This document shows, piece after piece, positions 2,717-46,931 of a stretch of DNA of 64,000 nt. Positions within the stretch are counted from its first letter, which is position 1, and every line of letters begins with the position of its first letter. The translations under genes were made by a program, and so were the position numbers. Source of the stretch: Escherichia phage CLB_P2; sequence record OL770107, one strand, 5' to 3'. The notes below the pieces were generated by a model. The model made no database searches. It saw nothing but the letters and a program-made list of their open reading frames with translations, and was not told the DNA's origin.

Positions 2717-2725
2717 CATTTAATG

Positions 2726-2754
2726 GTTTACAATGCCTTTAAACATGATACTAT
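2726..2754 (+). promoter_or_regulatory. T4 early-type promoter (GTTTAC -35, TACTAT -10)
   Basis: GTTTAC at 2726-2731 and TACTAT at 2749-2754, 17-nt spacer, about 30 nt before the ATG at 2784. Confidence 0.5.
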
Positions 2755-2783
2755 AGACCTATCAACTACATGAGGAAATAAAA

Positions 2784-3152: not shown

Positions 3153-3154
3153 AA

Positions 3155-3538: not shown

Positions 3539-3539
3539 T

Positions 3540-3800
3540 ATGACTAAAGATGATTTCCTGGATGCCGTAGAAAAAGCCAGTGAGAAATTTGAAGTGATGG
3601 GTGTACGAGTTCATAAAGACCGAAATTATGGGCTCGATGTCCAAACGTATTCGTTATGGCTTGTAGGTGAACATAGTCTTGTAACCAGCTTAGTTATGGG
3701 TGTTGATGCTCAACCCTTACTGGTTAAATTTAGAAGTATGGAAAAAGCTACCAAAGAAATGATTAAGCTTGGTAAATGGCTTGATAAAATTCAAAAATAA
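3540..3800 (+). CDS. hypothetical protein (86 aa)
   Basis: ATG at 3540 two nt after the upstream stop; the track ORF 3477..3800 begins inside the previous gene. Confidence 0.5.
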
Positions 3801-3802
3801 GT

Positions 3803-3836
3803 GTTTACAAGGTCTGTAGATATGATACTATAGACC
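3803..3836 (+). promoter_or_regulatory. early-type promoter with inverted repeat around the -10
   Basis: GTTTAC 3803-3808, TACTAT 3826-3831; GGTCTGTAG / CTATAGACC inverted repeat flanks the -10. Confidence 0.5.
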
Positions 3837-3859
3837 TATCAACTAATGAGGAAAATAAA

Positions 3860-4087
3860 ATGGCTAAGGTTAATATTGATATCGTTGATTTTGAATACAC
3901 TTACGAAGTTATCCGTAATCGTTATCCTTCTTTGACTATGACTTATATCAAAGACACACAATTCTGTAGTATGCAAATTGAAGTTCAAGGTCCTCTTGAA
4001 GACCTTACCCGCTTTATGGCTGATGAATATTGTGATGGTATGCATGCTGAAGACGCTGAATTTTATATGGGCTTAATTCAAAAATAA
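3860..4087 (+). CDS. hypothetical protein (75 aa)
   Basis: ORF preceded by SD GAGGAAAA and an early-type promoter. Confidence 0.55.
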
Positions 4088-4089
4088 GT

Positions 4090-4125
4090 GTTTACCTAAG
4101 GCTATGGTAGTGATACTATAGCCTT
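4090..4125 (+). promoter_or_regulatory. early-type promoter with inverted repeat
   Basis: GTTTAC 4090-4095, TACTAT 4114-4119; AAGGCTAT / ATAGCCTT inverted repeat. Confidence 0.5.
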
Positions 4126-4145
4126 ATCAACTTGAGGAGAATAAA

Positions 4146-4385
4146 ATGAAATTACAACGCGAATCAATCAAAGATTCTGAAGTTAAAGGCAAATGGTACT
4201 TCACAATCCAAGGTAACAATCCGGAAGCTCTGGAAAAAGCCGAACAAGCTTTGTGTGAAATGGGTTGGAAAGATGAGTGTGATGGGTGTCCTCTTTATGA
4301 AGATGGTAGCTCATCTGGTTTCTGGATTCACCATTCTGATGTTGACCAATTTAAAGCCGACTGGAAAGTCGCTAAGAAAGCGTGA
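4146..4385 (+). CDS. hypothetical protein (79 aa), Cys-containing
   Basis: ORF with SD GAGGAGAA upstream. Confidence 0.55.
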   Translation: MKLQRESIKDSEVKGKWYFTIQGNNPEALEKAEQALCEMGWKDECDGCPLYEDGSSSGFWIHHSDVDQFKADWKVAKKA

Positions 4386-4395
4386 GGAAAATATA

Positions 4396-4725
4396 ATGCT
4401 TACTGAATACACTTGCTTTGCTAAAGATGATGCACATCCTGAACTGATTCTTGAAGTTAAGGTTAATACACTTGAACAAAAATTTGATTGGAGCCTTTAC
4501 ATCTATCCTAAAAATAATATTGATGGTCCACAGAAATATACGCTTAACGACAAGTGCATTAGCGGTATCATTGGATACGGGTCTAGCGAAAGCAAATATT
4601 CATTAGAAGATATTCGCCAATCACGTTGTGCCGTCGCTTATTTTGATACTAGTACCATTAAATATCTTTACAAATTGGTTCTTGATATTCGCAAAGATTT
4701 TACCGCAATTAAAAAATGCAGTTAA
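4396..4725 (+). CDS. hypothetical protein (109 aa)
   Basis: ATG at 4396 preceded by GAGGA; the track ORF 4255..4725 begins inside the upstream gene. Confidence 0.5.
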   Translation: MLTEYTCFAKDDAHPELILEVKVNTLEQKFDWSLYIYPKNNIDGPQKYTLNDKCISGIIGYGSSESKYSLEDIRQSRCAVAYFDTSTIKYLYKLVLDIRKDFTAIKKCS

Positions 4726-5506
<781 letters not shown>

Positions 5507-5519
<13 letters not shown>

Positions 5520-6379
5520 TGAAACAATACCAATTTTTAATTAAAGATATCCTGGAAAATGGCTACGAAACCGACGACCGTACCGGCACCGGTACAATTG
5601 CACTGTTCGGTACTAAATTACGTTTTGATTTAACTAAAGGCTTTCCTGCAGTAACAACTAAAAAATTAGCATGGAAAGCCTGTATTGCTGAGCTCCTTTG
5701 GTTCCTTTCGGGTTCAACTAACGTTAATGACCTTCGTTTCCGTACTCACGGTTCACTAATTGGCGGTAAAACTATTTGGGACGAGAACTACGAAAATCAG
5801 GCCAAAGACCTAGGTTATCATAGTGGTGAACTTGGTCCGGTATACGGGAAACAATGGCGAGATTTTGGTGGTGTCGACCAGGTTGTAGAAATCATCAACC
5901 GCATTAAAAAGATGCCTAATGACCGACGTCAAATCGTATCTGCATGGAACCCGGCTGAAATCAACCAGATGGCTCTTCCACCGTGCCATTGTTTTTACCA
6001 GTTCAACGTTCGTAATGGACATCTTGACCTCCAGTGGTACCAACGTTCTGTTGACGTGTTCTTAGGATTGCCATTTAATATTGCCTCTTACGCCGCTCTT
6101 GTGCATATTGTAGCTAAGATGTGTAATCTTATTCCGGGCGATTTAGTGTTCTCAGGCGGCAATACACACATCTATTCTAACCACGTTGAACAATGCCAAG
6201 AAGTTCTTCGTCGTGAGCCTAAAGAGCTTTGTGAACTGGAAATTAATTGGCCTGAAGGATTCTCTGATTGGAGCACGACATTACAGCTTCATTGGGTAAC
6301 AGAGCATATGGTCCATGAAGATTTTAAACTCATTGGTTACGAATCACACCCTACCATTAAGGCTAAAATGGCTGTATGA
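5507..6379 (+). CDS. td: thymidylate synthase (290 aa), uninterrupted
   Basis: Thymidylate synthase motifs (DRTGTGT, LPPCH, FYQF, DLGPVYG); a single continuous ORF. Confidence 0.93.
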
Positions 6380-6440
6380 AAATTCAAATTGCTGGTACCT
6401 TATTTTTGGTTATTATGATTGGGCTGAATTTGGTGCTATA

Positions 6441-6734
6441 ATGAGAGTCTGTAGAGTTGTTAACAAGTATAAAGAAGATTTTGATGTCAATATCCAACGC
6501 GGAACCATGTGGGGTAATCCATTTAAAGATGGGACCCGTGAGGAAAACATCAAGAACTTTAAAGAATACTTTATTGCTAAAATAAAATCGGGTGAAATTA
6601 AAAGAGAACATCTTGAAACCCTTAGAGGTATGCGTATAGCGTGTACCTGTAAACCTAAGGACTGTCATGGGGATGTGATAGCCCTGGTTGTTAACAAACT
6701 TTTCAAAGACACGTTCTCATTAGAAGACCTATAA
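6441..6734 (+). CDS. hypothetical Cys/His-motif protein (DUF4326-like), start uncertain
   Basis: Motif GNPF...ACTCKPKDCHGD resembles a small conserved phage domain; first ATG after the td stop is at 6441 but lacks a clear SD. Confidence 0.45.
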   Translation: MRVCRVVNKYKEDFDVNIQRGTMWGNPFKDGTREENIKNFKEYFIAKIKSGEIKREHLETLRGMRIACTCKPKDCHGDVIALVVNKLFKDTFSLEDL

Positions 6735-6743
6735 ATATCAGTC

Positions 6744-6770
6744 CATGCTTAACAGGTTCTATGATAGAAT
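6744..6770 (+). promoter_or_regulatory. candidate middle (MotA-box) promoter for nrdA
   Basis: TGCTTAA at 6746-6752 resembles the MotA box; TAGAAT -10-like element 12 nt downstream; lies in an inverted repeat AGGTTCTAT / ATAGAACCT. Confidence 0.35.
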
Positions 6771-6800
6771 AATTATAGAACCTAACATATTGAGGAAATT

Positions 6801-9056
6801 ATGCAAGTACAAAAAAGTAGCGGTGTATCCCAAGATTTTGACGCACAAAAAATTATTAAAGTTCTGACTTGGGGCTGTGAAGGAACCCAAATCGACCCCT
6901 ATGAATTATACGAAGAAATCAAATCCCATCTTCGTGATGGTATGACCACCAAAGATATCCAGAATCTGACTGTTAAGGTAGCAGCCAACCTTATCTCGGT
7001 TGAAGAACCCGATTACCAATATGTTGCTGCAAAGCAACTGATGTTTGCACTGCGTAAAGAAGTTTATGGGCAGTTCGAACCGCGTAGTTTTATAGACCAT
7101 ATTTCCTATTGTGTTAACGAAGGTAAATATGACCCTGAATTGCTGTCTCGATATTCTGCAGAAGAAATTACTTTCTTAGAATCTCATATCAAGCATGAAC
7201 GCGATTTCGAATTAACCTATGCTGGTGCAATGCAGCTGAAAGAGAAATATCTGGTTAAAGATAAAACAACCGGTAAAATCTACGAAACCCCTCAGTTCGC
7301 TATTATGTGTATTGGTATGGCCTTACACCAAGACGAGCCAGGTAACCGTTTAGCACATATTATTCGTTTTTATGACGCTGTAAGTACTCGTCAGGTTTCG
7401 TTGCCTACTCCTATTATGGCAGGAGCACGTACTCCAACCCGTCAATTTAGTTCTTGTGTGGTTATTGAAGCAGGCGACTCGCTGAAATCTATTAACAAAA
7501 CCGCTAACTCAATAATTGAATACATTTCTAAACGTGCAGGTATTGGTATCAACGTTGGTATGATTCGTGCTGAAGGTTCTCGTATTGGCATGGGTGAAGT
7601 CAAGCATACCGGTGTTATTCCATTCTGGAAACATTTCCAGACTGCTGTTAAATCATGTTCACAAGGTGGAATCCGTGGCGGCGCTGCTACTGCTTATTAT
7701 CCTATTTGGCATTTGGAAGTTGAAAATCTGCTCGTTCTGAAAAACAACAAAGGTGTCGATGAGAACCGTATTCGACATATGGACTACGGAATCCAGTTGA
7801 ACGACCTTATGATGGAACGTTTCGGTAAAAATGATTACATCACGTTGTTCAGTCCTCATGAAATGGGCGGTGAGCTTTATTATTCTTATTTTGAAGACCA
7901 AGAACGTTTCCGTGAATTGTATGAAGCGGCTGAAAAAGACCCTAGCATTCGCAAGAAACGTATTAAAGCACGCGACCTCTTTGAATTGTTCATGACCGAA
8001 CGTTCAGGCACTGCACGAATTTATCCTCAGTTTGTTGATAACACTAACAACTTCACACCATTTATTCGTGAAAAGGCTCCTATTCGCCAGAGTAACTTGT
8101 GTTGTGAAATTGCTATCCCGACCACCGATGTGAATAGTCCGGACGCTGAAATCGGGTTGTGTACGCTGTCTGCATTCGTGTTGGATAACTTTGATTGGCA
8201 AGACCAAGACAAAATCAACGAACTTGCTGAAGTACAGGTACGTGCACTTGATAACTTGTTAGATTATCAAAGCTATCCTGTTCCTGAAGCTTTGAAGGCT
8301 AAGAAACGTCGTAACCTGGGTGTAGGTGTTACGAACTACGCCGCATGGTTAGCAAGCAACTTTGCTTCTTATGAAGATGCAAACGATTTAACTCACGAAT
8401 TGTTTGAGAGATTACAGTATGGACTTATCCGAGCATCAATCAAGTTGGCCGAAGAAAAAGGGCCTTGCGAGTATTATTCAGACACTAAATGGTCTCGAGG
8501 CGAGCTTCCTATCGACTGGTACAATAAAAAGATTGACCAAATCGCAGCCCCAAACTATGTTTGTGACTGGTCGTCGTTGCGGGAAGACTTGGCTAAACAT
8601 GGCATCCGTAATAGCACATTATCAGCACTTATGCCATGCGAGTCAAGCAGCCAAGTTTCCAACTCTACAAACGGTATCGAACCTCCGCGTGGTCCGGTAA
8701 GTATTAAAGAATCTAAAGAAGGTAACTTCCGTCAGGTAGTTCCTAATGTAGAACATAACCAAGGCCTCTATGATTACGCTTGGAGCCTCGCTAAGAAAGG
8801 TAATAAACCTTATCTTACCCAAGTAGCAATTATGTTGAAATGGGTTTGCCAATCTGCATCAGCGAATACGTATTACGACCCTCAGAACTATGAGAAAGGA
8901 AAAGTTCCTATGTCAGTAATGCTTGATGACCTGTTATATTTCTGGTACTTTGGTGGTAAGAACCTTTATTATCATAATACCCGTGATGGCTCTGGTACTG
9001 ACGATTACGAAATCGAAACTCCTAAAGCCGATGATTGCGCAGCTTGTAAGCTTTAA
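6801..9056 (+). CDS. nrdA: ribonucleotide reductase large subunit (751 aa)
   Basis: Class Ia RNR alpha features (N-terminal ATP-cone region, catalytic CE...NLC and C-terminal Cys pair), length and position. Confidence 0.95.
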   Translation: MQVQKSSGVSQDFDAQKIIKVLTWGCEGTQIDPYELYEEIKSHLRDGMTTKDIQNLTVKVAANLISVEEPDYQYVAAKQLMFALRKEVYGQFEPRSFIDHISYCVNEGKYDPELLSRYSAEEITFLESHIKHERDFELTYAGAMQLKEKYLVKDKTTGKIYETPQFAIMCIGMALHQDEPGNRLAHIIRFYDAVSTRQVSLPTPIMAGARTPTRQFSSCVVIEAGDSLKSINKTANSIIEYISKRAGIGINVGMIRAEGSRIGMGEVKHTGVIPFWKHFQTAVKSCSQGGIRGGAATAYYPIWHLEVENLLVLKNNKGVDENRIRHMDYGIQLNDLMMERFGKNDYITLFSPHEMGGELYYSYFEDQERFRELYEAAEKDPSIRKKRIKARDLFELFMTERSGTARIYPQFVDNTNNFTPFIREKAPIRQSNLCCEIAIPTTDVNSPDAEIGLCTLSAFVLDNFDWQDQDKINELAEVQVRALDNLLDYQSYPVPEALKAKKRRNLGVGVTNYAAWLASNFASYEDANDLTHELFERLQYGLIRASIKLAEEKGPCEYYSDTKWSRGELPIDWYNKKIDQIAAPNYVCDWSSLREDLAKHGIRNSTLSALMPCESSSQVSNSTNGIEPPRGPVSIKESKEGNFRQVVPNVEHNQGLYDYAWSLAKKGNKPYLTQVAIMLKWVCQSASANTYYDPQNYEKGKVPMSVMLDDLLYFWYFGGKNLYYHNTRDGSGTDDYEIETPKADDCAACKL

Positions 9057-9109
9057 TAAAATCTGATTATAATTGACTCATGGATGAGTCACTAACAAAT
9101 GAGAATAAC

Positions 9110-10249
9110 ATGTCTACAGTTTTTAATACTACCCCGGTTGATGTTTTAGTCGAACCGATGTTCTTTGGTTCAGGATTGGGTATTGCTCGTTACGATATCC
9201 AACGTCATAAAGTATTCGAAGAGCTTTGTGAAAAGCAGTTGAGTTTCTTCTGGCGTCCAGAGGAAGTTAACTTGATGATGGATGCTGCCCAGTTTAATAA
9301 GCTTCCTCAATTCCAACAAAATATTTTTACCAATAACCTGAAGTATCAATCACTTCTGGATAGTATCCAGGGACGTGCTCCTTCTGCTGCGCTCCAAGCA
9401 TTGATTTCAGACCCTAGCCTTGATACATGGGTGGCTACATGGACCTTTAGTGAAACCATTCACTCTCGTTCGTATACCCATATCATGCGTAACCTCTATA
9501 CAGACCCATCTAAGGTATTTGACGAAATTCTATTAGATGAAGCTATCATGAAACGTGCTGAATCTATTGGTCGTTATTATGATGATGTTATTGAGAAAAC
9601 TCGTAAATACCAAAATGCTTTAGAAGAATACCATGAGTTCAGTGAAGGTGTTAAAACCGCTAAATACGAACTAATGCGTTCTCTTTACCTCTGCCTGCAT
9701 GTAATAAACGCATTGGAAGCTATTCGTTTTTATGTATCTTTCGCATGTACCTTTAACTTCCATAAGAATATGGAAATCATGGAAGGTAATGCTAAGATTA
9801 TGAAGTTCATTGCACGTGATGAACAGCTTCACCTTAAAGGCACCCAGTACATTATCCGTCAACTCCAGCTTGGTACAGATGGTGATGAATGGGTTAAAAT
9901 TGCTCAAGAGTGTGAACAAGAAGCAGTTGATATTTTCATGGAAGTTAACCGACAAGAAAAAGAGTGGGCCGCTCACCTGTTCAAAGATGGTACTTGCCCT
10001 GGATTAAATACTCAGAACATGGGTGCTTTTGTCGATTACCTGACAGTTTCTCGTATGAAGCAATGTGGCTTACCATGTCCTATTACTGATGCTCCTACTC
10101 GCCATCCTTATCCTTGGATTCGTGAATACCTGAACTCTGATGCTGTACAGGCTGCTCCTCAGGAAGTGGAAATCAGTTCTTACCTTGTAGCACAAATTGA
10201 TAATGATGTCGATGAAAAAGTAATGGCATCATACAAGAAATATTTTTAA
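9110..10249 (+). CDS. nrdB: ribonucleotide reductase small subunit (about 379 aa), uninterrupted
   Basis: MSTVFN...EPMFFG...RYD aligns residue-for-residue with the E. coli NrdB N-terminus; start taken at that ATG (9110). An in-frame upstream ATG at 9080 lies inside a hairpin. Confidence 0.92.
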   Translation: MSTVFNTTPVDVLVEPMFFGSGLGIARYDIQRHKVFEELCEKQLSFFWRPEEVNLMMDAAQFNKLPQFQQNIFTNNLKYQSLLDSIQGRAPSAALQALISDPSLDTWVATWTFSETIHSRSYTHIMRNLYTDPSKVFDEILLDEAIMKRAESIGRYYDDVIEKTRKYQNALEEYHEFSEGVKTAKYELMRSLYLCLHVINALEAIRFYVSFACTFNFHKNMEIMEGNAKIMKFIARDEQLHLKGTQYIIRQLQLGTDGDEWVKIAQECEQEAVDIFMEVNRQEKEWAAHLFKDGTCPGLNTQNMGAFVDYLTVSRMKQCGLPCPITDAPTRHPYPWIREYLNSDAVQAAPQEVEISSYLVAQIDNDVDEKVMASYKKYF

Positions 10250-36412: not shown

Positions 36413-36640
36413 TTAGAACTCTTCTTGCTCTTCGTCATCCATGGATTCTAATTCAGCTCGTTTACCTGCTAGGGCATCACGAACACTGATATCATCCGAA
36501 TCTCGAAGTTCAGCTTCTTTACTACGAGTTTTGTAATACTTCTCCAATTCCTTCAAACCGTCCATGGTTTGACAAGAACTAATTTTAGACATGAAGCTCT
36601 CGATAGAGGCTTCATAGATAACTTCTTTAAAGGACTTCAT
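36413..36640 (-). CDS. UvsW.1-like small acidic protein (75 aa)
   Basis: Small ORF immediately downstream of and overlapping the uvsW stop, as in T4. Confidence 0.6.
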   Translation of the reverse strand: MKSFKEVIYEASIESFMSKISSCQTMDGLKELEKYYKTRSKEAELRDSDDISVRDALAGKRAELESMDDEEQEEF

Positions 36641-38133
36641 AAATCCACCTGTTTCATTACGTAATTAAATTTCTCGTCAGCATAACGTTGAATACGTTCT
36701 AAGGCATGTTTTAATGCATAATTCAAATGAACATATTTCTTTTTAGCATTTGCTGATTTAGGCTTAACGCCCATGTCGTCTATAATGTCCCAAACTTGTG
36801 CTGTTGATTTAGAAGCATGTTTACGGAGCACACGACCTATTGTCTGGAGTACAATGATTTTGGATTTTACCGGATGCGCAAATACTACATGGTGAAGGTT
36901 CTTAACGGAAATACCGGTAGAGAACACACCGTAACTTGCCACAACAATAATACCCTTACCATTTTCCGCCATTACTTTAAGAGCATTACGAGTTTCTGTA
37001 TTAACTTCACCTGATACGTAATAAACTTCTTTATGTTGCTCTTTAACCATTTCAAAAAGAGTTTTACCGTGCTCGATGTTTTTAAACATCAGGAATACGT
37101 TCTCTTCTTTCTTAGCGAGTTTAACAGCTAAATTAGCAACCCATTTATTACGACGGGTAGCCTTAGTAATGACTTTAATTTCTGATTGGTAATCTTTACC
37201 TTTCATCTTAACAGTGAATTCATCTGGATAACGAAGGAAAATACTGTTTATTTTTAAATCAGTGACCTGTCCTTCTTCCATTAACTGTGAAGTGGATACT
37301 GGCTTAAACACATCACCAAACAAACCCATATATTGCATTAAATTGGCTTTACCGTCTTTTAAAGAACCGGACAAACCGAATTTAAACATACAATTGGTAA
37401 GGCCTTCGATGATGGTAGAAATTGATTTACCTGTTGCCAAATGGCATTCGTCGTTCATAAACATACCAAACTGAGCAAACCATTCTTTAGGTTGTTTAAT
37501 AGCCGTTTGATAAGTTGAAACATAAATCATTGCATCGGAATCACGAGCAGTACCTGAACGAATACCAAGCATAGCAGCTTTAGGGAACAAACGATAATCA
37601 ATGAAGTCATTAATCATCTGGTCGACAAGTGCAGTAGTAGGAACTAAGATAAGAATTTTACCTTCATAGTTCTCAACGTAATATCGACTCAGGAGCGCCT
37701 GAATCAATGATTTACCTGCAGATGTAGGTAAATTCAGAATTGCACGACGTTTTGTCAGACCGTTGTATACGGCTTCATTCTGATACCAATGTGGCTCAAT
37801 CTTGGTAGAACCTGAATAAATCTCTTGTGAAGCTACCCATGAGTCAAAATCTTCACGTGAAATATCTTCTTGTTCAAGAATTCGTGGGTCAATCCAAAGA
37901 GAGTATTCAAACTGGTCAGCGAATTTTTTAATTTGTGGGACTAGACCATACGGAAGTTTACGGTTATAATCTAGAAGACGAATTCTCCCATCCCATTGCC
38001 CGTAACGGTATTTAGGGTTAAATTTATATCCATCAGCTTCAAAGCTGAAATAGTCTCTGAGTTCGTAGAAGGTGGATTCATCACACTCAACACGAACATG
38101 ACTAAAATTATCAAAATGTACTTGAATTTGCAT
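36637..38133 (-). CDS. uvsW: UvsW DNA/RNA helicase (498 aa)
   Basis: SF2 helicase motifs (Walker A PTSAGKS, DECH box, TIGRVLR arginine finger region); size near T4 UvsW. Confidence 0.92.
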   Translation of the reverse strand: MQIQVHFDNFSHVRVECDESTFYELRDYFSFEADGYKFNPKYRYGQWDGRIRLLDYNRKLPYGLVPQIKKFADQFEYSLWIDPRILEQEDISREDFDSWVASQEIYSGSTKIEPHWYQNEAVYNGLTKRRAILNLPTSAGKSLIQALLSRYYVENYEGKILILVPTTALVDQMINDFIDYRLFPKAAMLGIRSGTARDSDAMIYVSTYQTAIKQPKEWFAQFGMFMNDECHLATGKSISTIIEGLTNCMFKFGLSGSLKDGKANLMQYMGLFGDVFKPVSTSQLMEEGQVTDLKINSIFLRYPDEFTVKMKGKDYQSEIKVITKATRRNKWVANLAVKLAKKEENVFLMFKNIEHGKTLFEMVKEQHKEVYYVSGEVNTETRNALKVMAENGKGIIVVASYGVFSTGISVKNLHHVVFAHPVKSKIIVLQTIGRVLRKHASKSTAQVWDIIDDMGVKPKSANAKKKYVHLNYALKHALERIQRYADEKFNYVMKQVDL

Positions 38134-38147: not shown

Positions 38148-38170
38148 TATAAATATAATTATATTTATAC
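38148..38170. promoter_or_regulatory. divergent late promoters (inh on plus, uvsW on minus)
   Basis: TATAAATA at 38148-38155 on the plus strand and its complement TATTTATA at 38163-38170, each about 30 nt from its ATG. Confidence 0.5.
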
Positions 38171-38188: not shown

Positions 38189-38860
38189 ATGGATACTCAA
38201 TATATTGAAGAGCTTCGTGCACTCGAAGATAAAAAAGAAGCTAAAGCTAAGTTAATCGAATACGGCGAACAGTTCGGTTTAAAACTTAAGAAAACCCGTT
38301 CGTTTGATAATTTGATTATCGATATCTCTGAAGGCCTTAAAGCCCTGGCTGATGAACCACTTCCAGAAACCGAAGGTTTGTCTATTTCTGATTTGATTGA
38401 TGCCGCCGACGAACTCACAGGTGCTAACGAATTTGTTGATGGTGCTGAACCTGCCAAAGAAGAAGCTACCCTATTATTTGATGCCCCTGAAGCGGTAGTT
38501 GAAGTTATTGAGGTAGCCGAACTTCCTAAGGTAGAGATTATTGAAGAAGATGTTCCTTTTGTCGAAGAGAAATTCAAAGAGGCTGTAGCCGAGGTTATTG
38601 AATCTGAAAAACCTGTATTCTCTTTGCCTGAAAACTTTAGTCCTAATCTTTTGCTTATTGGTAAAAACCCTGGTTACTGTACTGTTCCTTGGTGGATTTA
38701 TCAATGGATTTCTGAAACCCCTGATTGGAAAGACCGTCCTAAAGATTTCCAACACCCTTCTGCCCACCAAACATTATTCAGTCTGATTTATTACATCAAT
38801 CGTAATGGCTCAGTATTAGTACGTGAAACACGTAATTCATCTTTTGTAACTTTAAAATAA
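38189..38860 (+). CDS. inh: Inh-like protein (inhibitor of prohead protease), 223 aa
   Basis: Acidic protein located between uvsW and hoc as T4 inh; assigned by synteny and size. Confidence 0.5.
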   Translation: MDTQYIEELRALEDKKEAKAKLIEYGEQFGLKLKKTRSFDNLIIDISEGLKALADEPLPETEGLSISDLIDAADELTGANEFVDGAEPAKEEATLLFDAPEAVVEVIEVAELPKVEIIEEDVPFVEEKFKEAVAEVIESEKPVFSLPENFSPNLLLIGKNPGYCTVPWWIYQWISETPDWKDRPKDFQHPSAHQTLFSLIYYINRNGSVLVRETRNSSFVTLK

Positions 38861-38869
38861 GGGTAAAAT

Positions 38870-40282
38870 ATGGCTTTTACTGTAAGTATAGCCGGCGCTG
38901 CGTCTATTAAAATAGGCGAAAGCGCCAACTACACTGCTACCGCAACAGGTGCAGCTGTAGAAGGAACCGTTACATATGTATGGACCATTGACGGTGCTTC
39001 TAATCCGGAGGCAACCAATGTTTTGAGATATACCGGTGCGGCTCCAGCTGGTAAGAAAGTTTTAAAAGTAGTAGCAACTTCTACTCCGGCCGAAGGCGAA
39101 CCTGAGGTAGCTGAAAAAACTTTTGAAGTTACCGTAGCTAATAAGACCATGACTATTTCTTTGGCCTTAGACCCTACTTCCGTTTCTAAAGAAATTGGCC
39201 AGTCCCAAGTTGTTACTGCTAACGTGACGGGTGCTCCTGCTGGTGCTACAATTGCTTATGTTTGGAAACGTAATACAACTGTAATTTCAGGACAAACTGG
39301 TAAAACTATTACTGTAACCGAAGCAGCAGAAGCAAATTACACGTTGAACTGTGAAGTTACTGTTACCGCCCCTGAATATGACCCGGGTACCGCTACTAAA
39401 GGTGTTGCGGTAACTTTTGTTAAGAAAACTATATCAGGTGCTTCCGTTACTTTAACACCAGCCTCAATTAGTACAGAGAAAGGCTCATCTGCACAGTTTA
39501 AAGCGGATGTAGTTGGCGCTCCTTCCGGCGTAAATGCAACTTATTCTTGGAAGAAAAATGGTTCTATTATTCCAGGCGAAAGCAGTAATATTCTTGCCGT
39601 CGATACATCTACAATAGGTTCTTACTCTATTGAAGTTTCGGTACTCCTAAAAGGTACGGATTATAATGATTTAACCGTTACCAAAACAGGAAGTGTAACA
39701 ATTACTAAAAAGACTATGGCAGGTGTTTCTGTTAATTTAACGCCTGCTTCTATTACTGTCTCTGAAGGAATCCCGGCTTCTTTTAAAACCACGGTAGTCG
39801 GTGCGCCTAGTGGTGCTACTTTTGCTTATTCTTGGAAGAAAGATGGTTCACCTGTTGTGGGTGCTACGGATACATTAGTAATTGACACAAGCGCTGAAGG
39901 TTCACAGGTTATTGAAGTTTCTGTTGTGGTTTCGGCTACCGACTATAATTCTGTGACCGTCACAAAATCCGGTAATGTAACAATTACGGCTAAAGTCGCT
40001 CCTGAACCAGAGGGCGAACTACCTTACGTTCATCCGCTACCAGTTCGTAATTCAGCTTATATTTGGTGTGGTTGGTGGGTTATGGACGAAATTCAGAAAA
40101 TGACCCTTGAAGGCAAAGACTGGAAAACTGACGAACCTGATAGTGAATATTATCTCCATCGTTATACCCTTCAAAAAATGGTAGCCGATTATCCTGAGGT
40201 TGATGTACAGGAATCTCGTAATGGTAGAATTATTCACAGAACCGCTTTGGATGCTGGAATTATTTACGATTACGTTTATTAA
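38870..40282 (+). CDS. hoc: Hoc outer capsid decoration protein with four Ig-like domains (470 aa)
   Basis: C-terminal capsid-binding region (AKVAPEPEGELPYVHPLP...AYIWCGWWVMDEIQKMT.EGKDWKTD...EVDVQESRNG) matches T4 Hoc; four Ig-like repeats each with the Y.W pattern. Confidence 0.92.
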   Translation: MAFTVSIAGAASIKIGESANYTATATGAAVEGTVTYVWTIDGASNPEATNVLRYTGAAPAGKKVLKVVATSTPAEGEPEVAEKTFEVTVANKTMTISLALDPTSVSKEIGQSQVVTANVTGAPAGATIAYVWKRNTTVISGQTGKTITVTEAAEANYTLNCEVTVTAPEYDPGTATKGVAVTFVKKTISGASVTLTPASISTEKGSSAQFKADVVGAPSGVNATYSWKKNGSIIPGESSNILAVDTSTIGSYSIEVSVLLKGTDYNDLTVTKTGSVTITKKTMAGVSVNLTPASITVSEGIPASFKTTVVGAPSGATFAYSWKKDGSPVVGATDTLVIDTSAEGSQVIEVSVVVSATDYNSVTVTKSGNVTITAKVAPEPEGELPYVHPLPVRNSAYIWCGWWVMDEIQKMTLEGKDWKTDEPDSEYYLHRYTLQKMVADYPEVDVQESRNGRIIHRTALDAGIIYDYVY

Positions 40283-40286
40283 TAAA

Positions 40287-40310
40287 GGGCCGCAAGGCCC
40301 TTATTTAGTT
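40287..40310 (+). terminator. rho-independent terminator after hoc
   Basis: GGGCC-GCAA-GGCCC hairpin followed by TTATTTAGTTT. Confidence 0.6.
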
Positions 40311-40367: not shown

Positions 40368-40547
40368 ATGAAATTTAACAAAGATATAGGGTTGTTGGTT
40401 TTCTTTATAGTGCTGTTTTTGTTTTCGTTAATTTCATTAACTAGTGGGTTGTTTGCTTCTATATTGGCTCTTTTCACATGCATTAGTTCCTTTTTTGGGA
40501 TAATAGCTACTATAGATAAAATTTTACATACCAAAAAGGGCCCGTAG
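40368..40547 (+). CDS. small predicted membrane protein (about 59 aa)
   Basis: SD AGGTGG 6 nt before the ATG; hydrophobic product (MKFNKDIGLLVFFIVLFLFSLISLTSGLFASILALFTCISSFFGIIATI...); followed by a terminator. Too short for the ORF track. Confidence 0.45.
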   Translation: MKFNKDIGLLVFFIVLFLFSLISLTSGLFASILALFTCISSFFGIIATIDKILHTKKGP

Positions 40548-40560
40548 GCCCTTTATTATT
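40531..40560. terminator. bidirectional terminator
   Basis: GGGCC-CGTA-GGCCC hairpin flanked by an A-run upstream and TTTATTATTTTT downstream; serves the plus small ORF and the minus Hoc-like gene. Confidence 0.6.
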
Positions 40561-41422
40561 TTTCAGGAGGGACGTAAACTAAGTCTTTCCTTTCTAAGAT
40601 GTAGCCATTTCTCGACTCTTGTATCTCTACTTCAGGATACTTAGACAAAAGGTCGGCTACTTTTTGTAACTCACATTTATACTTGTATGGGCTGTTGTTT
40701 ATATCCAAAGTCCAATCTTCTCCCAATCTAACGGCTTCTCTTATTTCGTCCCATACCCACCAACCTATCCACATATACGATTCATTTCTTCCACCGCCAT
40801 ATGGTAAATAAGCATTAAGGTCGTTATCATATATGAAAGGGCACTGCAATACATCATCCCTAGGTTTTATTTCAACTAAAAGTTCTTCAGAAGCAGGGAT
40901 ATATGCTCCTTCGCAGGTCGCTATAGATTTTAATGTATAATCTCCAAATTTATCAGGGTCGTCTATTAATATATCAATATCTTCGTCTTTAGATAATTCT
41001 ACTCCATCTCTATACCATCTACAAATTCTTTCGGCATAAGTGGGTTCCACTCTACACGACGGGCGAAGTGAAACTGTTTCTCCTATATTGGCATATATTA
41101 ATTCCCTAGAGTTTATATCTAGGACTATTCTTCTTGGAAGGGTACCTATTTCAAGTTCTATTTCGTTACTCTTTGTTATTTCACCACTTTTCTTATTTGT
41201 TATGGTCGCATAAAATGTTCCTGCCGCCGGGAATCCTACTTCCCATAAATTTAATTCAAAAGGGTCTTCGGTAGGAAGTTGTGGAATATGGACATCGTTT
41301 TTATACCAATTAATTTCTACATCATCTAGAGTAGAACCGGGTGGTAATACAAACCCGGTATAAAAGGTTACTGTCCTGCCAACCAATTCATATCTAGGAC
41401 CATTTATTTTAAGTACAATCAT
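40556..41422 (-). CDS. second Hoc-like protein: two Ig-like domains plus a Hoc-type capsid-binding C-terminus (288 aa)
   Basis: C-terminus (NESYMWIGWWVWDEIREAVRLGEDWTLD...KYPEVEIQESRNGYILE) parallels the Hoc C-terminal domain; N-terminal region has Ig-like W.Y and Y.C patterns; SD AGGAGG couples it to the upstream collagen-like gene. Confidence 0.75.
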   Translation of the reverse strand: MIVLKINGPRYELVGRTVTFYTGFVLPPGSTLDDVEINWYKNDVHIPQLPTEDPFELNLWEVGFPAAGTFYATITNKKSGEITKSNEIELEIGTLPRRIVLDINSRELIYANIGETVSLRPSCRVEPTYAERICRWYRDGVELSKDEDIDILIDDPDKFGDYTLKSIATCEGAYIPASEELLVEIKPRDDVLQCPFIYDNDLNAYLPYGGGRNESYMWIGWWVWDEIREAVRLGEDWTLDINNSPYKYKCELQKVADLLSKYPEVEIQESRNGYILERKDLVYVPPEK

Positions 41423-41431: not shown

Positions 41432-42937
41432 TTAAAACGTGCTCATATTGGTATGGTCTTCGACAGAAAATAAAACTTCAACAGGGATATCTGTAGTCGT
41501 ATTAAGAGGGCCGCCTACAATAAACACAGATACAGTGTAGTATTTTCTAGTATCACGGTCAAATATTTCGTAACGGTTAAATTGTCTTGCACTAGAATAA
41601 GCCAAATCGTCGAATAATTCAGGAGATGATGACCACAACACATTACTCCAGTTGGCACATTCTATTCCGTTTTCATAGTTGGTAAATCTTTTAATATCAA
41701 GCCTATTAGTAAGACCTGCATTAGTAGCCCTTATATGGATGCCTACAGATGAGTACATGCGAACATGAAGAACCATATTAAGGTCCCACAAACGTATTTC
41801 CTTCCACTCTGAAGTGTTCAGAGGCTTATCAAATCTTAAAGAGCCTTTCCAATATCTAGGTGGATAGAATGGGAAAAGTTTATCATATAAAGATTTTAAT
41901 TGAGACTGGGTTAAAGAATCGACATCAAATACTGCATCTTTGCCTGGCGCACCTGCAGGACCTATAGGACCTTGAATACCTTGAGGACCTTGATCGCCTT
42001 TTTCACCTTTAGGTCCTGGATTACCTTGTGGACCCTGCGGCCCTTGAGCACCGGGCGCGCCATCTTCTCCTGGATATCCAGGTCTTCCTTCTTGTACAAA
42101 CAAATGCCAATAATCAACCCATAGGTCTCCACGGCCTGGATAACTATCATTATTTGCTATATTGTCCTGAATACAAATCCAAGAAGACCCTTCGCACTGG
42201 ACTAAATCATTTACATAATAAGGTGTGCCAGGGTCCCAGTTTCCGGCCCAGATAAACCCATTACCATCTTGGCCTGGCGCGCCTTGTGGACCTTGAGGGC
42301 CGGTTGGGCCTGTTGGTCCTTGAGGACCTGGTGCACCGATATTAGCCAATAGCGCCCAAACTCCTTCGCTAGGAGGTATTGTTCCTGTATTAGAACTGAT
42401 GCAAAAATAAGAAGCTCCCTGGTATCCAACTGCATCGTCTTTAGAGTATTGGGTAGATTCATCCCAGGCTCCCTTCCACACCAAACCTGCCGGGCCTATA
42501 GGACCTTGTGGTCCTTGCGGTCCTACTTCTCCTTGGGCCCCTTGTAAACCCTGAGGGCCTTCTTTTCCTGGTGAACCCGGGTCTCCTTTAGGACCTTCTG
42601 GACCTGCTGGTCCTGGTTCGCCCTTTTCTCCTTTAGGACCCGGGTTACCTTGAATACCTTGCGGCCCTGGGTCTCCTTTAGGGCCTTGTGGACCTTCAGT
42701 ACCAGGTGTTAGCATCTCATTAGTTATACCTAAATGGGCCAACGCGCCTTCCCTAGAAGCTTGTTTTATAAATTCAAGTCCATAACTTTGAGAAGAATCC
42801 AACATAGTAGGGTCTAAGGTGCTTTCACTAGTGAGTATGTCTGCAAATTCCAATGATTTATCCTGCGGAACTTCTACTAATGATACGCCTCTAAAGTGAC
42901 CTCTACCGTCATGCCCGTATAATGGATTGTCTGACAT
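41432..42937 (-). CDS. collagen-like triple-helix repeat protein with two carbohydrate-binding-like (CBM5/12-type) modules (501 aa)
   Basis: Three Gly-X-Y runs of about 24, 8 and 17 triplets, separated by W.G.WD...Y...D.V...G.S(Y/W).CI modules; SD CAGGAG before the ATG; first gene of a two-gene minus-strand operon. Confidence 0.8.
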
Positions 42938-42947
42938 AAAATCTCCT

Positions 42948-42977
42948 GTTTACAAGTTAAAATTCTCATGTTACTAT
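42948..42977 (+). promoter_or_regulatory. early-type promoter
   Basis: GTTTAC 42948-42953, TACTAT 42972-42977, 18-nt spacer. Confidence 0.4.
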
Positions 42978-43006
42978 TGAATAGTTCAAATCACAAGAGA
43001 ACTGTT

Positions 43007-43219
43007 ATGGATAAGATTAAAGTACATTTTTTACATGAATCGGGTATGAATTTTATTGATATTGCTAAAAAGATTGGCGGAACTGCCAGAGATATGGCTA
43101 AAGCTTGGGCCGAAGTTGAGAATGCTAAGGCCAAGTTTAAAGCAAGAGAGAAAGTCGTATATCGTAAAAGATTAAACAACAAAAAAGTCAGCGCAAAGCG
43201 CGTTTTTGGTCTAAAGTAA
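43007..43219 (+). CDS. hypothetical small basic protein (70 aa)
   Basis: ATG at 43007 downstream of the promoter -10; the track ORF start at 42968 lies within the promoter. Confidence 0.45.
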   Translation: MDKIKVHFLHESGMNFIDIAKKIGGTARDMAKAWAEVENAKAKFKAREKVVYRKRLNNKKVSAKRVFGLK

Positions 43220-43333
43220 TATGCTTTAAATTTAGGTGTGTTATAATGGGTCTAGGTCCTTCCGTTAAACCATTTGGCTTGGTGACAGAAGATTACTAGC
43301 TCTTCTATTTAATTATATTTATTATGGTGATTT

Positions 43334-44341: not shown

Positions 44342-44376
44342 ACAATAAAGGGACCTTACGGTCCCTTTTATTTTTC
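44341..44376. terminator. bidirectional terminator (rnlB on plus, gene-24 paralog on minus)
   Basis: GGGACC-TTAC-GGTCCC hairpin flanked by AACAATAAA and TTTTATTTTTC. Confidence 0.65.
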
Positions 44377-45648
44377 TAGTGGTGGAAGTTTAACACCGAG
44401 ATAAGAACTCAACTGACTTTGATTAGCCATTTTGTCCATATCCGAACCATCAATAATGCGAGCTTCTTTATCGTCCTTAGCGACGGTATAAGGGTTTGCA
44501 GTCAATGCATAACGAGCAAGCAATGCTACTGTAGGTTGTAAGCTTTCCGGGTCAACAATAACCTTAAATTCACCTACTGAAGTATCACCTTCTTCATCAA
44601 CCACATCCAAACCTTCCGTATAAGGCGCATAATATAAAGATGCGACCGTCTGTCCTTCACCCATCTGAGCATTTACACCAACAATAACATAATCACATGG
44701 ACTATTCATATCGGCATAAAGAGGTAGACCATTCTTTAATACACCATAAGCCAATTCATCTTGGTCTTCCTTTTTCTCAACCCAACCGGAAGCGGCGAGA
44801 ATAGCAGCACAACGAGAACTAGCTACTGCATAAGTCCCAGCGAAAGAAGTTTGACGTTGGACGGCAGAGTTCATCTCACACATGTAATAATATAATGTAC
44901 GAGCACGGTCCTGGGCATTATCATAACGTGGGTTAGTAAGGTCCAATACGCCCTTTTCAGAAACACCTTGGACTTTAAAACGAGAACTCACCGTAATTAA
45001 TGACTGTAATACGTCCTTATTAATTTCTTCTGCCATTTGAATGCCTAGCAGATTTTCAATGAAATTAGGAGCATTAAATCCGTTTGATTCTAGGTCTTGG
45101 GCCAATTCGACTGTCAACGAAGTTTTCAGTTTACGTGATTTAACTTCAGATTGCCATTTGTCAATACGGAAGCCTGCTTCAGCAATTTCAGGATGGCCTT
45201 GTTCGAATTTAGAAGTAATAGCAGCATCTGATACCATACGAATATGTCCGGCCGCCACTGCTTCAGAAATAACTTCACCGAGGTCGGTTTCCGTGGTTCC
45301 GGCGAAAGGAGATGCTTCTAGAACTTTAAACACTACACTTTCAAACTGGAACATATCGCCGGCTGCATAAGCTGTAGACGAATCGGTAAATTCAGGAATA
45401 TTTTCACGTTCCGACATACCAATCTGACCTGCAAATGTGGCGCCACCAAGATAAGTCATTTTGTCGTCAGGATTAAGTACACGAACCCCGTACAGAGCGG
45501 CCACAGGTTGGCTTGTTTTTTGTTCAGCAACTAGGGCTTTAAAGATTCGTTTATTAGTTGCTTGGGTGTATGAAAGAAGAGCAGGACGGCCAACCGAGTT
45601 GGCAGCCGTCAATGTGGATTCTTTAATTAGGTCTATAATCTTAGACAT
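44368..45648 (-). CDS. gp24-like capsid vertex protein paralog (426 aa)
   Basis: Collinear similarity to the adjacent gp24 along the whole length (about half the residues shared at both termini, e.g. SLQPTVALLARYALTANPYTVAKDDKEARIIDG). Confidence 0.85.
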   Translation of the reverse strand: MSKIIDLIKESTLTAANSVGRPALLSYTQATNKRIFKALVAEQKTSQPVAALYGVRVLNPDDKMTYLGGATFAGQIGMSERENIPEFTDSSTAYAAGDMFQFESVVFKVLEASPFAGTTETDLGEVISEAVAAGHIRMVSDAAITSKFEQGHPEIAEAGFRIDKWQSEVKSRKLKTSLTVELAQDLESNGFNAPNFIENLLGIQMAEEINKDVLQSLITVSSRFKVQGVSEKGVLDLTNPRYDNAQDRARTLYYYMCEMNSAVQRQTSFAGTYAVASSRCAAILAASGWVEKKEDQDELAYGVLKNGLPLYADMNSPCDYVIVGVNAQMGEGQTVASLYYAPYTEGLDVVDEEGDTSVGEFKVIVDPESLQPTVALLARYALTANPYTVAKDDKEARIIDGSDMDKMANQSQLSSYLGVKLPPLEK

Positions 45649-46931
45649 TAATCAGCCTCGTAAATAATTGCTGGAAGTTTAACACCAAGCAGATAGGACA
45701 TATTACTCTGACCGGCCATTAAATCCATATTGGTTGCATCGATAACACGAGCTTCTTTATCGTCTTTAGCTACGGTGTACGGGTTAGCGGACAGTGCATA
45801 ACGAACCATCAGAGAAATAGAAGGCTGTAATGAATCCGGGTCGACAATAACCTTATAAGCACCAACGTGTTCTTGGTCGTCTAAATCCAGGCCTTCTGTA
45901 TATGGGGCGTAGAAAATAGAACCGACAACTTCATTACCACCATAGTTCTCTTTAACACCTACGATAACATAATCCAATGGGCTGTTAACGTCGCAGAACA
46001 GAGGTAATCCATTCAACAAATAACCATAGGCCGTTTCTGGGAGCCAATTATTATCTTCAGGTCTATGTTTTAACCAGCCAGAACCTGCAAGCATTGCAGC
46101 CACACGACTTGAAGCCACAACAAACGTACCTGAATAAGAAGTAGTTTTCTGGATTTCAGAATTCATCTCACAAACAATTTCATAAAGTTTACGTGCAGAT
46201 TCTGGAGCACTATCATAAGTCAAATCGATGATGCCATTATCAGATACACCCGTAACTTTATAGCGTTTGGATACGGTTATTAGAGATTGCAGAACATCTT
46301 TATTAATTTCATCTGCCATTACCGTAGCCAGGAGGTCTTCTAAGAATGCAGGGGCGTCGAAGCCATTTGATTCCATATCCTGTGCTAATTCTACGGTCAA
46401 AGCAGTCTTCAATTTACGGGTCTTAACAGGGGCATTCCATTTATTAACCTGGAATACAGCATCAGAGATTTCTACATCACTCTCTTCAAATTTAGTGGTA
46501 TGGGCTGCATCAGGAACCAAACGACACGTTAATGACACCAAACCTTCTTGAAGAGCATCGGCCAATTCTGTAGCGCTAGTGGATGCGAGTGGGCTTGCTT
46601 GAAGAGCCTTATAAACCACATTCTGATACTTAAAGTAGTCACCCTTGGCAATCGCCTGGGCTTTATCTGTGAGTTCCGGGATAGTTTCACGGTCTTTAGA
46701 ACCAACTTCACCACCATAAACTGCACCGGTTTGGAAACTGAATTCATTATCAGGGGTAAGATATTTGACACCATACAACGCAGCGATAGGTTGGTTTGTA
46801 CGTTGTTCAGCGATGATATCGCGATAAATTAGTTTAGTGGTAGCACGGGTCAAAGCAACAAGATTAGGGCGACCCAATGAGTTGCTGGTAGTAGTTGTTG
46901 ACTCGCGCAGTAATTCGTTAATCTTTGCCAT
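45648..46931 (-). CDS. 24: capsid vertex protein gp24 (427 aa)
   Basis: N-terminus MAKINELLRESTTT.SNS.GRPNLVALTRATTKLIY and C-terminal region match remembered T4 gp24; same length. Confidence 0.92.
   Translation of the reverse strand: MAKINELLRESTTTTSNSLGRPNLVALTRATTKLIYRDIIAEQRTNQPIAALYGVKYLTPDNEFSFQTGAVYGGEVGSKDRETIPELTDKAQAIAKGDYFKYQNVVYKALQASPLASTSATELADALQEGLVSLTCRLVPDAAHTTKFEESDVEISDAVFQVNKWNAPVKTRKLKTALTVELAQDMESNGFDAPAFLEDLLATVMADEINKDVLQSLITVSKRYKVTGVSDNGIIDLTYDSAPESARKLYEIVCEMNSEIQKTTSYSGTFVVASSRVAAMLAGSGWLKHRPEDNNWLPETAYGYLLNGLPLFCDVNSPLDYVIVGVKENYGGNEVVGSIFYAPYTEGLDLDDQEHVGAYKVIVDPDSLQPSISLMVRYALSANPYTVAKDDKEARVIDATNMDLMAGQSNMSYLLGVKLPAIIYEAD

Follow-up and report, generated by a model that had tools for sequence, protein, structure and literature searches.

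The window analyzed here, a stretch of 64,000 nucleotides from Escherichia phage CLB_P2 (record OL770107), comes from a Dhakavirus, a T4-like phage of the Straboviridae, and carries hoc, the gene for the highly immunogenic outer capsid protein, on its plus strand. The open reading frame list places this gene exactly at 38870..40282 with a product of 470 aa, the length given in an earlier sequence-only reading of the same DNA. The product was assigned to PHROG 1149 ('Hoc-like head decoration', E = 2.6e-123), matched T4 Hoc (PDB 5vf3_Z, 376 aa) in a phmmer search with E = 1.7e-114 and is acidic like T4 Hoc, with an overall pI of 4.99. Its conserved upstream neighbor is inh, the gene for the prohead protease inhibitor (38189..38860, plus strand; PHROG 1051, E = 9.2e-91), and this order of inh and hoc is common to the window, T4, JS10, IME08, WG01 and IME341. 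The wider arrangement, uvsW, inh and hoc followed by a 24.3-like gene, rnlB and gene 24, matches that of T4 and the Dhakavirus relatives. An exact match to the T4-type late promoter motif, TATAAATA, lies upstream of the pair at 38148..38155 (plus strand), and inh ends 9 nt before hoc, suggesting that the two genes are co-transcribed; hoc would then be expressed late. A GC-rich hairpin followed by a T-run at 40285..40302 (plus strand), found in a terminator scan, is the likely hoc terminator. Beyond it, on the opposite strand where the earlier reading had noted a second Hoc-like gene, lie hoc2 (40556..41422; 288 aa; PHROG 1149, E = 6.2e-43) and, upstream of hoc2 across a gap of 9 nt, a gene for a collagen-repeat protein of 501 aa (41432..42937, minus strand).

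The Hoc protein of the window consists of four repeats of ~94 aa (residues 1–93, 94–187, 188–282 and 283–376) and a C-terminal domain (residues 377–470). In alignments all six pairs of repeats scored above shuffled controls (z = 5.3–23.6), and an AlphaFold2 model with a mean pLDDT of 86.3 divided residues 1–370 into four all-beta modules that share one strand pattern, with block-mean pLDDT values of 85–97. Foldseek matched the model to proteins built of consecutive beta-sandwiches of the Ig-like or cadherin-like kind, among them the crystal structure of RB49 Hoc (3shs) and a four-Ig fragment of Dscam1. Repeat statistics, predicted modules and fold matches thus agree with the earlier claim of four Ig-like repeats ahead of the C-terminal domain. 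The figures given in that reading for T4 Hoc, 376 aa and three Ig-like domains, are correct according to 5vf3_Z and a 2023 survey of Hoc proteins, in which T4 Hoc has three Ig-like domains and, at its C-terminus, a domain for capsid binding, and is displayed as 155 fibers of 180 Angstrom (PMC10385173). The alignment to T4 Hoc is split, with residues 1–105 of the window protein paired with T4 residues 1–106 and residues 194–468 with T4 residues 100–375, so that ~90 residues of the window protein have no counterpart in T4.

Domain clustering separated the Ig-like modules of these proteins into three classes, A (D1-type), B (D2-type) and C (T4-D3-type), and all four modules of the window could be placed among them. 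D1 (residues 1–93; 38870..39148, plus strand) is a class A module that grouped with all D1 domains, is the ortholog of T4 D1 (43% identity) and was predicted as a beta-sandwich with block-mean pLDDT values of 85–95. D2 (residues 94–187; 39149..39430, plus strand; pLDDT 93–97) belongs to class B and is 87% identical to IME08 D2 and 76% identical to D2 of Klebsiella phage PMBT63; WG01 Hoc has no such module. The extra module, D3 (residues 188–282; 39431..39715, plus strand), is a second, diverged member of class C, 51% identical to T4 D3 and absent from the Hoc proteins of both IME08 and WG01. D4 (residues 283–376; 39716..39997, plus strand) is the class C ortholog of T4 D3, with identities of 55% to that domain, 87% to IME08 D3 and 83% to WG01 D2. 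At the nucleotide level the repeats are 52–64% identical to one another. We also considered whether D3 is set apart as a basic module (pI 8.2) in an acidic protein, and dropped this idea on finding that the IME341 copy, 95% identical, has a pI of 5.1; in the Hoc proteins of other phages the basic module is D2.

The C-terminal domain of 94 aa (39998..40279, plus strand) is near-identical to residues 281–376 of T4 Hoc in the phmmer alignment to 5vf3_Z. Among the capsid-contact residues named for T4 Hoc (PMC10385173), Y293, H295, R300, W309, W310 and the ESRNG loop (E355–G359) are all kept, and the sole change affects a less conserved position, H299, which is a valine in the window. This conservation of contact residues suggests that the protein binds the capsid. 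AlphaFold2 modeled the domain with low confidence (pLDDT 47–69), which we attribute, as an assumption, to a domain that folds against the capsid.

Whole-domain variation of Hoc is a feature of Dhakavirus. The main Hoc has 282 aa in WG01 (D1 and D4), 377 aa in IME08 (D1, D2 and D4) and 469–472 aa in the four-module proteins of JS10, IME341, dhaeg and the window (D1, D2, D3 and D4), and these insertions or deletions are clean whole domains bounded by conserved (K/N)KT junctions. D1 itself occurs in Dhakavirus as two allelic types that are ~52% identical and distributed independently of the presence of D3. In terms of module classes, the window protein reads A-B-C-C, a layout shared with Klebsiella phages PMBT63 and KMI11 and Salmonella phage SG1; T4 and IME08 have A-B-C, WG01 has A-C, and some metagenomic relatives have A-B-B-C-C. 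Lengths of 467–472 aa were found in 87 of 120 homolog clusters and lengths of 563–565 aa in 4 of 120, a tally of the 120 top-scoring matches, out of 909 homologs, to a four-domain query in which four-domain forms are consequently over-represented. The published survey reports up to 10 Ig domains, variable Ig numbers, genomes with two hoc genes and second, short Hoc proteins (PMC10385173).

Compared with T4 Hoc (5vf3, 8t1x; NP_049793), the window protein is of the same family, lies in the same position downstream of inh and has the same design of a string of Ig-like domains, but its four modules exceed the three of T4 by a second T4-D3-type domain, and T4 D2 is only ~31% identical to any module of the window. 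The closest counterparts are in other Dhakavirus genomes: JS10 Hoc (ACL78404.1, 469 aa; 92% overall identity) and the 470-aa proteins of dhaeg and dhabil (97% overall identity for the dhabil cluster) have the same four modules and differ from the window by point substitutions only, and all three phages carry hoc2 and the collagen-like gene. IME341 Hoc (472 aa) is 87–95% identical to the window over D2–D4, whereas its D1 is the other allele (52% identity) and hoc2 is missing. Outside the genus, a 2026 paper on PMBT63 describes a Hoc of 468 aa, predicted by AlphaFold2 to have four Ig-like domains and a capsid-binding domain, one Ig-like domain more than T4, and reports that mucin-coated surfaces retained the phage (PMC13435897). 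This protein is 68% identical to that of the window over 99% of its length and has the same A-B-C-C layout, although PMBT63 belongs to another genus, has another host and shares only 60% identity with D3 in its third module; the paper places the capsid-binding domain at the N-terminus, whereas it is C-terminal in all of our alignments. Compared by description, PhiPNJ-9 Hoc has fewer modules, two Ig-like domains and the capsid-binding domain, and binds MUC2 (PMC11853027); it exemplifies natural loss or gain of whole domains with MUC2/fucose binding kept, a parallel to the 282-aa WG01 Hoc in Dhakavirus. Literature searches for JS10/JS98 hoc and Dhakavirus Hoc returned no relevant description, and JS10, dhaeg and IME08 do not appear in the supplementary text files of PMC10385173.

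Counting the domains with Pfam, the check named in the sequence-only reading, proved too insensitive. The I-set and Ig_3 models each matched two stretches of the window protein, and D1 and D2 searched singly gave no Ig match in Pfam; these two modules are called Ig-like on the strength of their predicted fold and their homology to the Hoc proteins of T4 and RB49. The same two models each matched one stretch in the T4, IME08 and WG01 Hoc proteins and two in PMBT63 Hoc, a pattern indicating that Pfam counts only the T4-D3-type domain. By this count the window has one T4-D3-type domain more than T4. We rejected the Pfam count as a domain number, given that it misses D1 and D2 and scores as one the three Ig-like domains of T4 Hoc, and relied in its place on the structure model together with the statistics of the repeats. 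Read at face value, the two stretches would suggest fewer than four domains and leave the additional ~94 residues as linker or low-complexity sequence, which we consider extremely improbable. Residues 188–282 were predicted as a beta-sandwich with the strand pattern of the other modules and a pLDDT of ~95, which argues for a folded domain and excludes the linker origin that the earlier reading had named as grounds for refutation; they align to module 4 with 56% identity (z = 23.6), they yield sub-threshold matches to Ig_3, PKD, Ig_2 and I-set when searched alone, and the T4 control scores a single stretch despite its three domains. In the model, the added stretch forms one entire folded module, repeat 3.

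How the third module arose can be read in several ways. Modules 3 and 4 are mutual closest relatives within the protein, and D3 copies of at least 89% identity are limited to 15 of 50,697 phage records, the next best match being 64%, as might be expected if the fourth domain were a fresh innovation of this phage, produced not long ago by tandem duplication in its own lineage. We rejected this candidate on the divergence of the two modules (56% aa and 64% nt identity, with a longest common exact word of 17 nt), which is as great as that between D4 and T4 D3, and judge it very unlikely; the D3 type also occurs in JS10, IME341, dhaeg, dhabil, MN01, vB_EcoM_005 and a Salmonella phage, and the A-B-C-C layout in Klebsiella and Salmonella phages. 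Tandem repeats are prone to mis-assembly, and the matching GenBank record, OZ035781.1, has no annotation, but that the 470-aa frame is an artefact with a mis-assembled extra repeat is almost inconceivable, because the four-module gene, third module included, recurs in genomes obtained independently, in different years and laboratories, and repeats of 52–64% nucleotide identity are too diverged to confuse an assembler. A realistic possibility, falling somewhat short of probable, is that the four-domain form is ancestral, that the 377-aa IME08 and 282-aa WG01 proteins arose by module deletion and that the window has simply retained it. A-B-C-C spans Hoc proteins of Dhakavirus, Klebsiella and Salmonella phages with overall identities of 68–70%, and the shorter Dhakavirus proteins miss exactly one or two modules with junctions intact; however, the T4-type A-B-C layout is likewise widespread, and D3 of the window is only 59–62% identical to the module in third position in PMBT63, KMI11 and SG1, no closer than it is to D4 of those three phages or to the class C module of WG01, so that the third modules are no more than candidate orthologs. 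This alternative bears on the past of the gene alone and does not conflict with our account of what the protein is.

We propose that the open reading frame is very probably the Dhakavirus hoc gene, encoding a four-module A-B-C-C capsid fiber whose extra module is a second class C copy of old origin. Under this proposal Hoc would be a monomeric capsid-decoration fiber in which the C-terminal domain binds the center of the major capsid protein hexamer and the four tandem Ig-like beta-sandwiches point outward from the head. With one module more than T4, the fiber would exceed the 180 Angstrom reported there by approximately one module, or roughly 40–45 Angstrom. D3, as an old class C copy, would have been gained or lost whole through recombination that kept the reading frame and took place at the junctions conserved between domains. 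The role of Hoc by homology would be non-essential, in adhesion to surfaces, such as mucin glycans or those of cells, and in modulating the dispersion of particles, a role known for the Hoc proteins of T4, PhiPNJ-6, PhiPNJ-9 and PMBT63 (PMC10385173, PMC11853027, PMC13435897). Our own observations are of architecture, predicted fold, contact-residue conservation, locus position and the presence or absence of domains in relatives, and adhesion by the window protein is suggested by that homology.

The second gene, hoc2, is a real Hoc paralog. Its product was modeled (mean pLDDT 83) as two beta-sandwiches (residues 1–93 and 97–187), both Ig-like modules, and an alpha/beta C-terminal domain of the Hoc type, with RB49 Hoc (3shs) as the best fold match. 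The C-terminal domains of Hoc2 and Hoc are 46% identical, and Hoc2 keeps the equivalents of R300, W309, W310 and ESRNG, with Y293 replaced by phenylalanine and H295 and H299 each by tyrosine. A long and a short Hoc likewise occur together in Serratia phage Muldoon (1174 aa and 314 aa) and Enterobacter phage PG7, where both proteins of each genome have the capsid-binding domain (PMC10385173); the short Hoc of Muldoon has two Ig-like domains like Hoc2, and module numbers otherwise differ. T4, unlike the window, has neither a second hoc nor a collagen-like gene in the hoc interval. Hoc2 of the window and JS10 are only 50% identical, in flanking DNA that is ~92% identical over the aligned half of a 5.3-kb query, and the JS10 collagen-like protein is shorter, at 335 aa. 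Together with the whole-domain indels and the two D1 alleles, the divergence of Hoc2 bears out the earlier suggestion that surface Ig-like domains have diversified at this locus.

The collagen-repeat protein encoded upstream of hoc2 matches Pfam Collagen (E = 2.3e-23) and CBM_5_12 (E = 4.9e-11) and PHROG 5073 ('tail fiber protein', E = 2.5e-89), and ~75 residues at its N-terminus are conserved. A late promoter for this minus-strand operon was sought, and no exact TATAAATA was found nearer than 46960, only variants with one mismatch. A short Hoc of this type nearly always has a collagen-like fiber gene upstream of it, across a gap of 1–11 nt, mostly 9 nt, and the pair occurs in the window, JS10, Salmonella phage CGG4-1, three metagenomic contigs and a distant 176-kb phage; in one contig it is duplicated in tandem as a unit. 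A scan of viral_contigs with an alignment of Hoc2 returned six loci, two of them informative, too few for linkage statistics. From the conserved pairing and its duplication as a unit we put forward, as a tentative and rather doubtful idea, that Hoc2 and the collagen/CBM5/12 protein form a conserved, co-inherited two-gene module in several T4-like lineages and act jointly. In one version of this idea Hoc2 would be the anchor or partner, on the capsid, through which the head displays a trimeric fiber that is collagen-like and binds carbohydrate. A literature search for collagen-like proteins together with Hoc found no description of the pairing.

As a four-Ig Hoc, the protein of the window is a textbook decoration protein and ordinary among its relatives, and its value as a discovery is small: the four-domain layout has been in GenBank since the 469-aa hoc of JS10 was annotated in 2008, is common in T4-like phages of Klebsiella and Salmonella and was described for PMBT63 in 2026. 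The short Hoc and collagen-like fiber pairing, which lies outside the original observation, is the single point here that may merit more work, and if our idea is true it would provide a second kind of head-surface adhesin beside the four-Ig Hoc. Dhakavirus also offers a natural series of two-, three- and four-module Hoc proteins (WG01; IME08; JS10 or CLBP2) on capsids that are otherwise very similar, and this series could be used, with modest value, to study how fiber length and module content affect adherence to mucus and the geometry of phage display.

The hoc ORF occupies 38870..40282 on the plus strand and encodes 470 aa, exactly as the sequence-only reading had placed it, and its product matched both the Hoc family (PHROG 1149 'Hoc-like head decoration', 2.6e-123) and T4 Hoc (PDB 5vf3_Z, 376 aa; 1.7e-114). 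The T4 alignment fell into two blocks (query 1-105 to T4 1-106; query 194-468 to T4 100-375), leaving about 90 query residues without a T4 counterpart. By eye and by alignment, Hoc consists of four ~94-aa repeats, D1 to D4 (aa 1-93, 94-187, 188-282 and 283-376), each closing with a (K/N)KT-type junction, and a 94-aa C-terminal domain. All six repeat pairs scored above shuffled sequences, with z values of 5.3-7.7 for pairs involving D1, 12-16 for D2 against D3 or D4, and 23.6 for D3 against D4. An AlphaFold2 model built from 31 homologues (mean pLDDT 86.3) contained four all-beta modules that share one strand pattern, with block means of 85-97 to residue 370. In the PDB, Foldseek matched this model to serial beta-sandwiches of the Ig-like or cadherin-like kind, among them RB49 Hoc (crystal structure 3shs), NCAM Ig1-3 and a four-Ig fragment of Dscam1. 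Repeat alignment, model and fold matches thus bear out the claim of four Ig-like repeats before the C-terminal domain. Because the 'extra' region 188-282 was modelled at pLDDT about 95, with the strand pattern of the other modules, the added length is a folded module rather than linker.

Counting Pfam domains, the check proposed with that claim, gave a different number. I-set and Ig_3 each marked just two stretches in the 470-aa Hoc; scanned singly, D3 and D4 gave sub-threshold Ig matches, and D1 and D2 gave no Pfam Ig match. As a control we scanned Hocs of known architecture with the same two models, which found one stretch each in T4 Hoc despite its three Ig-like domains, one each in the IME08 and WG01 Hocs, and two each in the four-domain Hoc of Klebsiella phage PMBT63. 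I-set and Ig_3 therefore detect only the T4-D3-type module, of which the window Hoc has one more than T4. The count recovered this additional stretch and not the four modules, and on its own would have led to the false rejection of a true observation.

Although true, the observation of a four-Ig Hoc was already known, and there is nothing new in the architecture itself, because JS10, another Dhakavirus, has carried a 469-aa 'hoc head outer capsid protein' in its annotation since 2008, the 468-aa Hoc of PMBT63 has been published as a four-Ig protein (PMC13435897, 2026), 650 Hoc homologues are reported to carry Ig-like domains in strings that reach 10 in phage Muldoon (PMC10385173, 2023), and a natural two-Ig Hoc retains MUC2 binding (PMC11853027). 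The architecture is a common one: the 120 clusters scoring highest in a 5.8-billion-protein database, a list that favours four-module forms since it was ranked by score against a four-module query, comprised 87 of 467-472 aa, 29 of 373-377 aa and 4 of 563-565 aa, and the 467-472-aa clusters among these came mostly from Klebsiella phages, with 67-70% identity over full length. In contrast, the D3 sequence type occurred at >=89% identity in 15 of 50,697 phage records, the next best match being 64%.

Gaps in the alignment of Dhakavirus Hocs were clean whole modules, with D1+D4 in WG01 (282 aa), D1+D2+D4 in IME08 (377 aa) and all four in JS10, IME341 and the window (469-472 aa). The extra module is therefore D3 (39431..39715, plus strand). 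Its identity to D4, 56% in protein and 64% in DNA, argues against a fresh duplication and resembles that of T4 D3 to window D3 (51%) and D4 (55%); D3 is consequently best read as a second copy, long since diverged, of the T4-D3-type module. Compared with the third module of Klebsiella and Salmonella phage Hocs, window D3 was only 59-62% identical, no closer than to their fourth. D3 may have been gained in the window's lineage or else lost in IME08 and WG01.

When 44 modules from 12 Hocs were clustered, D1-type modules formed class A, D2-type modules class B and T4-D3-type modules class C, and T4 D2 stood apart from all three. Modules were ordered A-C in WG01, A-B-C in IME08, UP19 and VR20 (and in T4 by position only, its D2 being the outlier), A-B-C-C in the window, IME341, PMBT63, KMI11 and SG1, and A-B-B-C-C in two metagenomic proteins of 563-565 aa. 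Two D1 alleles, about 52% identical to each other, assort independently of D3. The picture suggested by these sequences is one of modular shuffling through in-frame recombination at conserved junctions. The earlier proposal that surface-exposed Ig-like domains have diversified holds, in that module number and D1 allele vary among Dhakavirus Hocs.

The C-terminal domain was modelled with lower confidence (pLDDT 47-69), and its sequence is almost identical to that of T4 Hoc. Equivalents of the gp23-contact residues listed for T4 Hoc (PMC10385173) are kept at Y386, H388, R393, W402, W403 and E448-G452, the sole change being T4 H299 to V392. One report on PMBT63 calls the capsid-binding domain N-terminal (PMC13435897); it was C-terminal in all our alignments including that Hoc, as in T4. 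By homology, this domain most likely docks Hoc as a single monomer on each gp23 hexamer, at its centre, and the fibre built by the four Ig-like modules would exceed the 180-Angstrom fibre of T4 by about one module. Such a fibre, acidic like T4 Hoc (overall pI 4.99), would probably adhere weakly to glycans or mucus, a non-essential function, and influence particle dispersion.

A 5.3-kb query from the window matched Dhakavirus CLBP2 (OZ035781.1) at 100% identity and the Escherichia phages dhaeg and dhabil at about 97%. hoc lies downstream of uvsW (36637..38133, minus strand; Pfam UvsW_N 2e-43) and inh (38189..38860, plus strand; PHROG 1051 at 9e-91). An exact T4 late-promoter motif, TATAAATA, at 38148 (plus strand) 5' of inh-hoc suggests late expression, and downstream of hoc lies a GC hairpin followed by a T-run (40285-40302, plus strand). 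Next, on the opposite strand, come a Hoc-like ORF, hoc2 (40556..41422, 288 aa), and a 501-aa collagen-repeat ORF (41432..42937), beyond which are a 24.3-like ORF, rnlB and two gene-24 paralogues. The latter, at the site of gene 24 (head vertex protein), adjoin each other on the minus strand (44368..45648, 426 aa; 45648..46931, 427 aa), in agreement with two annotated 'head vertex protein' genes in WG01 and '24b' in JS10. Dhakavirus phages appear to carry gene 24 in two copies, which may have a bearing on capsid surface variation. The genes hoc and hoc2 converge on a 273-bp gap that contains a 59-aa ORF (40368..40547, plus strand) with a very hydrophobic product (MKFNKDIGLLVFFIVLFLFSLISLTSGLFASILALFTCISSFFGIIATIDKILHTKKGP), an RBS-like GGTGGA in front and two near-identical flanking GC-rich hairpins (40285-40302 and 40535-40554). 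The corresponding gap is just 44 bp in JS10, whereas dhaeg has the same gap as the window, unannotated; the region could represent a mobile mini-cassette or a moron for a small membrane protein.

In the window, the stop codon of the collagen-repeat gene, whose product has two CBM_5_12 modules and belongs to PHROG 5073 'tail fiber', is followed after 9 nt by the hoc2 start. The same arrangement recurs elsewhere, with a short Hoc-type gene 1-11 nt (at most loci 9 nt) behind a collagen-like gene of the PHROG 5073 type. Besides the window, it was found in JS10 (4697-5704 / 3825-4685), in Salmonella phage vB_SnwM_CGG4-1 (KU867307; 3372-4991 / 5001-5858), in two metagenomic contigs whose main Hoc has 284 aa (in one of them at 3459-4991 / 5001-5858), twice in tandem on contig L008 (892-2358, 488 aa / 2367-3203, 278 aa; 3232-4992, 586 aa / 5001-5861, 286 aa), and in a 176-kb phage that is only distantly related (3486-4499 / 4501-5001). 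In that phage 1 nt separates the genes for a collagen-like protein of 337 aa and a single-Ig Hoc of 166 aa. In this small sample the pair spans several T4-like lineages; the one exception is IME08, which has hoc2 without an adjoining collagen-like gene. We found no description of the pairing in the literature searched. Its recurrence suggests a conserved two-gene module in which the collagen-repeat protein and the short Hoc may be functionally coupled.

The second Hoc-like gene noted on the opposite strand proved to be a genuine paralogue (PHROG 1149 at 6.2e-43), and second short Hocs are known from Muldoon and PG7 (PMC10385173). The C-terminal domains of Hoc2 and Hoc are 46% identical; Hoc2 retains R212, W221, W222 and E269-G273 and substitutes F196, Y198 and Y208 for T4 Y293, H295 and H299. 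Two beta-sandwich modules (aa 1-93 and 97-187) and an alpha/beta C-terminal domain make up the AlphaFold2 model of Hoc2 (mean pLDDT 83), for which RB49 Hoc was the top PDB fold match. The Hoc2 family is small and fast-evolving: it comprised only 9 clusters in the large protein database, relatives at >=60% identity occurred in only 8 phage records, and the JS10 and window proteins are only 50% identical. Directly upstream of the collagen/hoc2 operon (42938..43333, minus strand) the exact late promoter is absent; one-mismatch variants (e.g., 43310-43317 and 43316-43323) are the only such matches there, and a sigma70-like match (43341-43312) lies 5' of the operon, which runs antisense to the neighbouring 24.3 and rnlB. 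CGG4-1 has three Hoc-like genes at one locus (944 aa, 5886-8720; 279 aa, 8754-9593; 285 aa, 5001-5858), all three products with the C-terminal motifs W.GWW and ESRNG, so multi-Hoc loci exceed the two-gene cases of the cited literature. If Hoc2 is made and binds the capsid, it would rival the long Hoc for hexamer sites and give the particle a mosaic surface.
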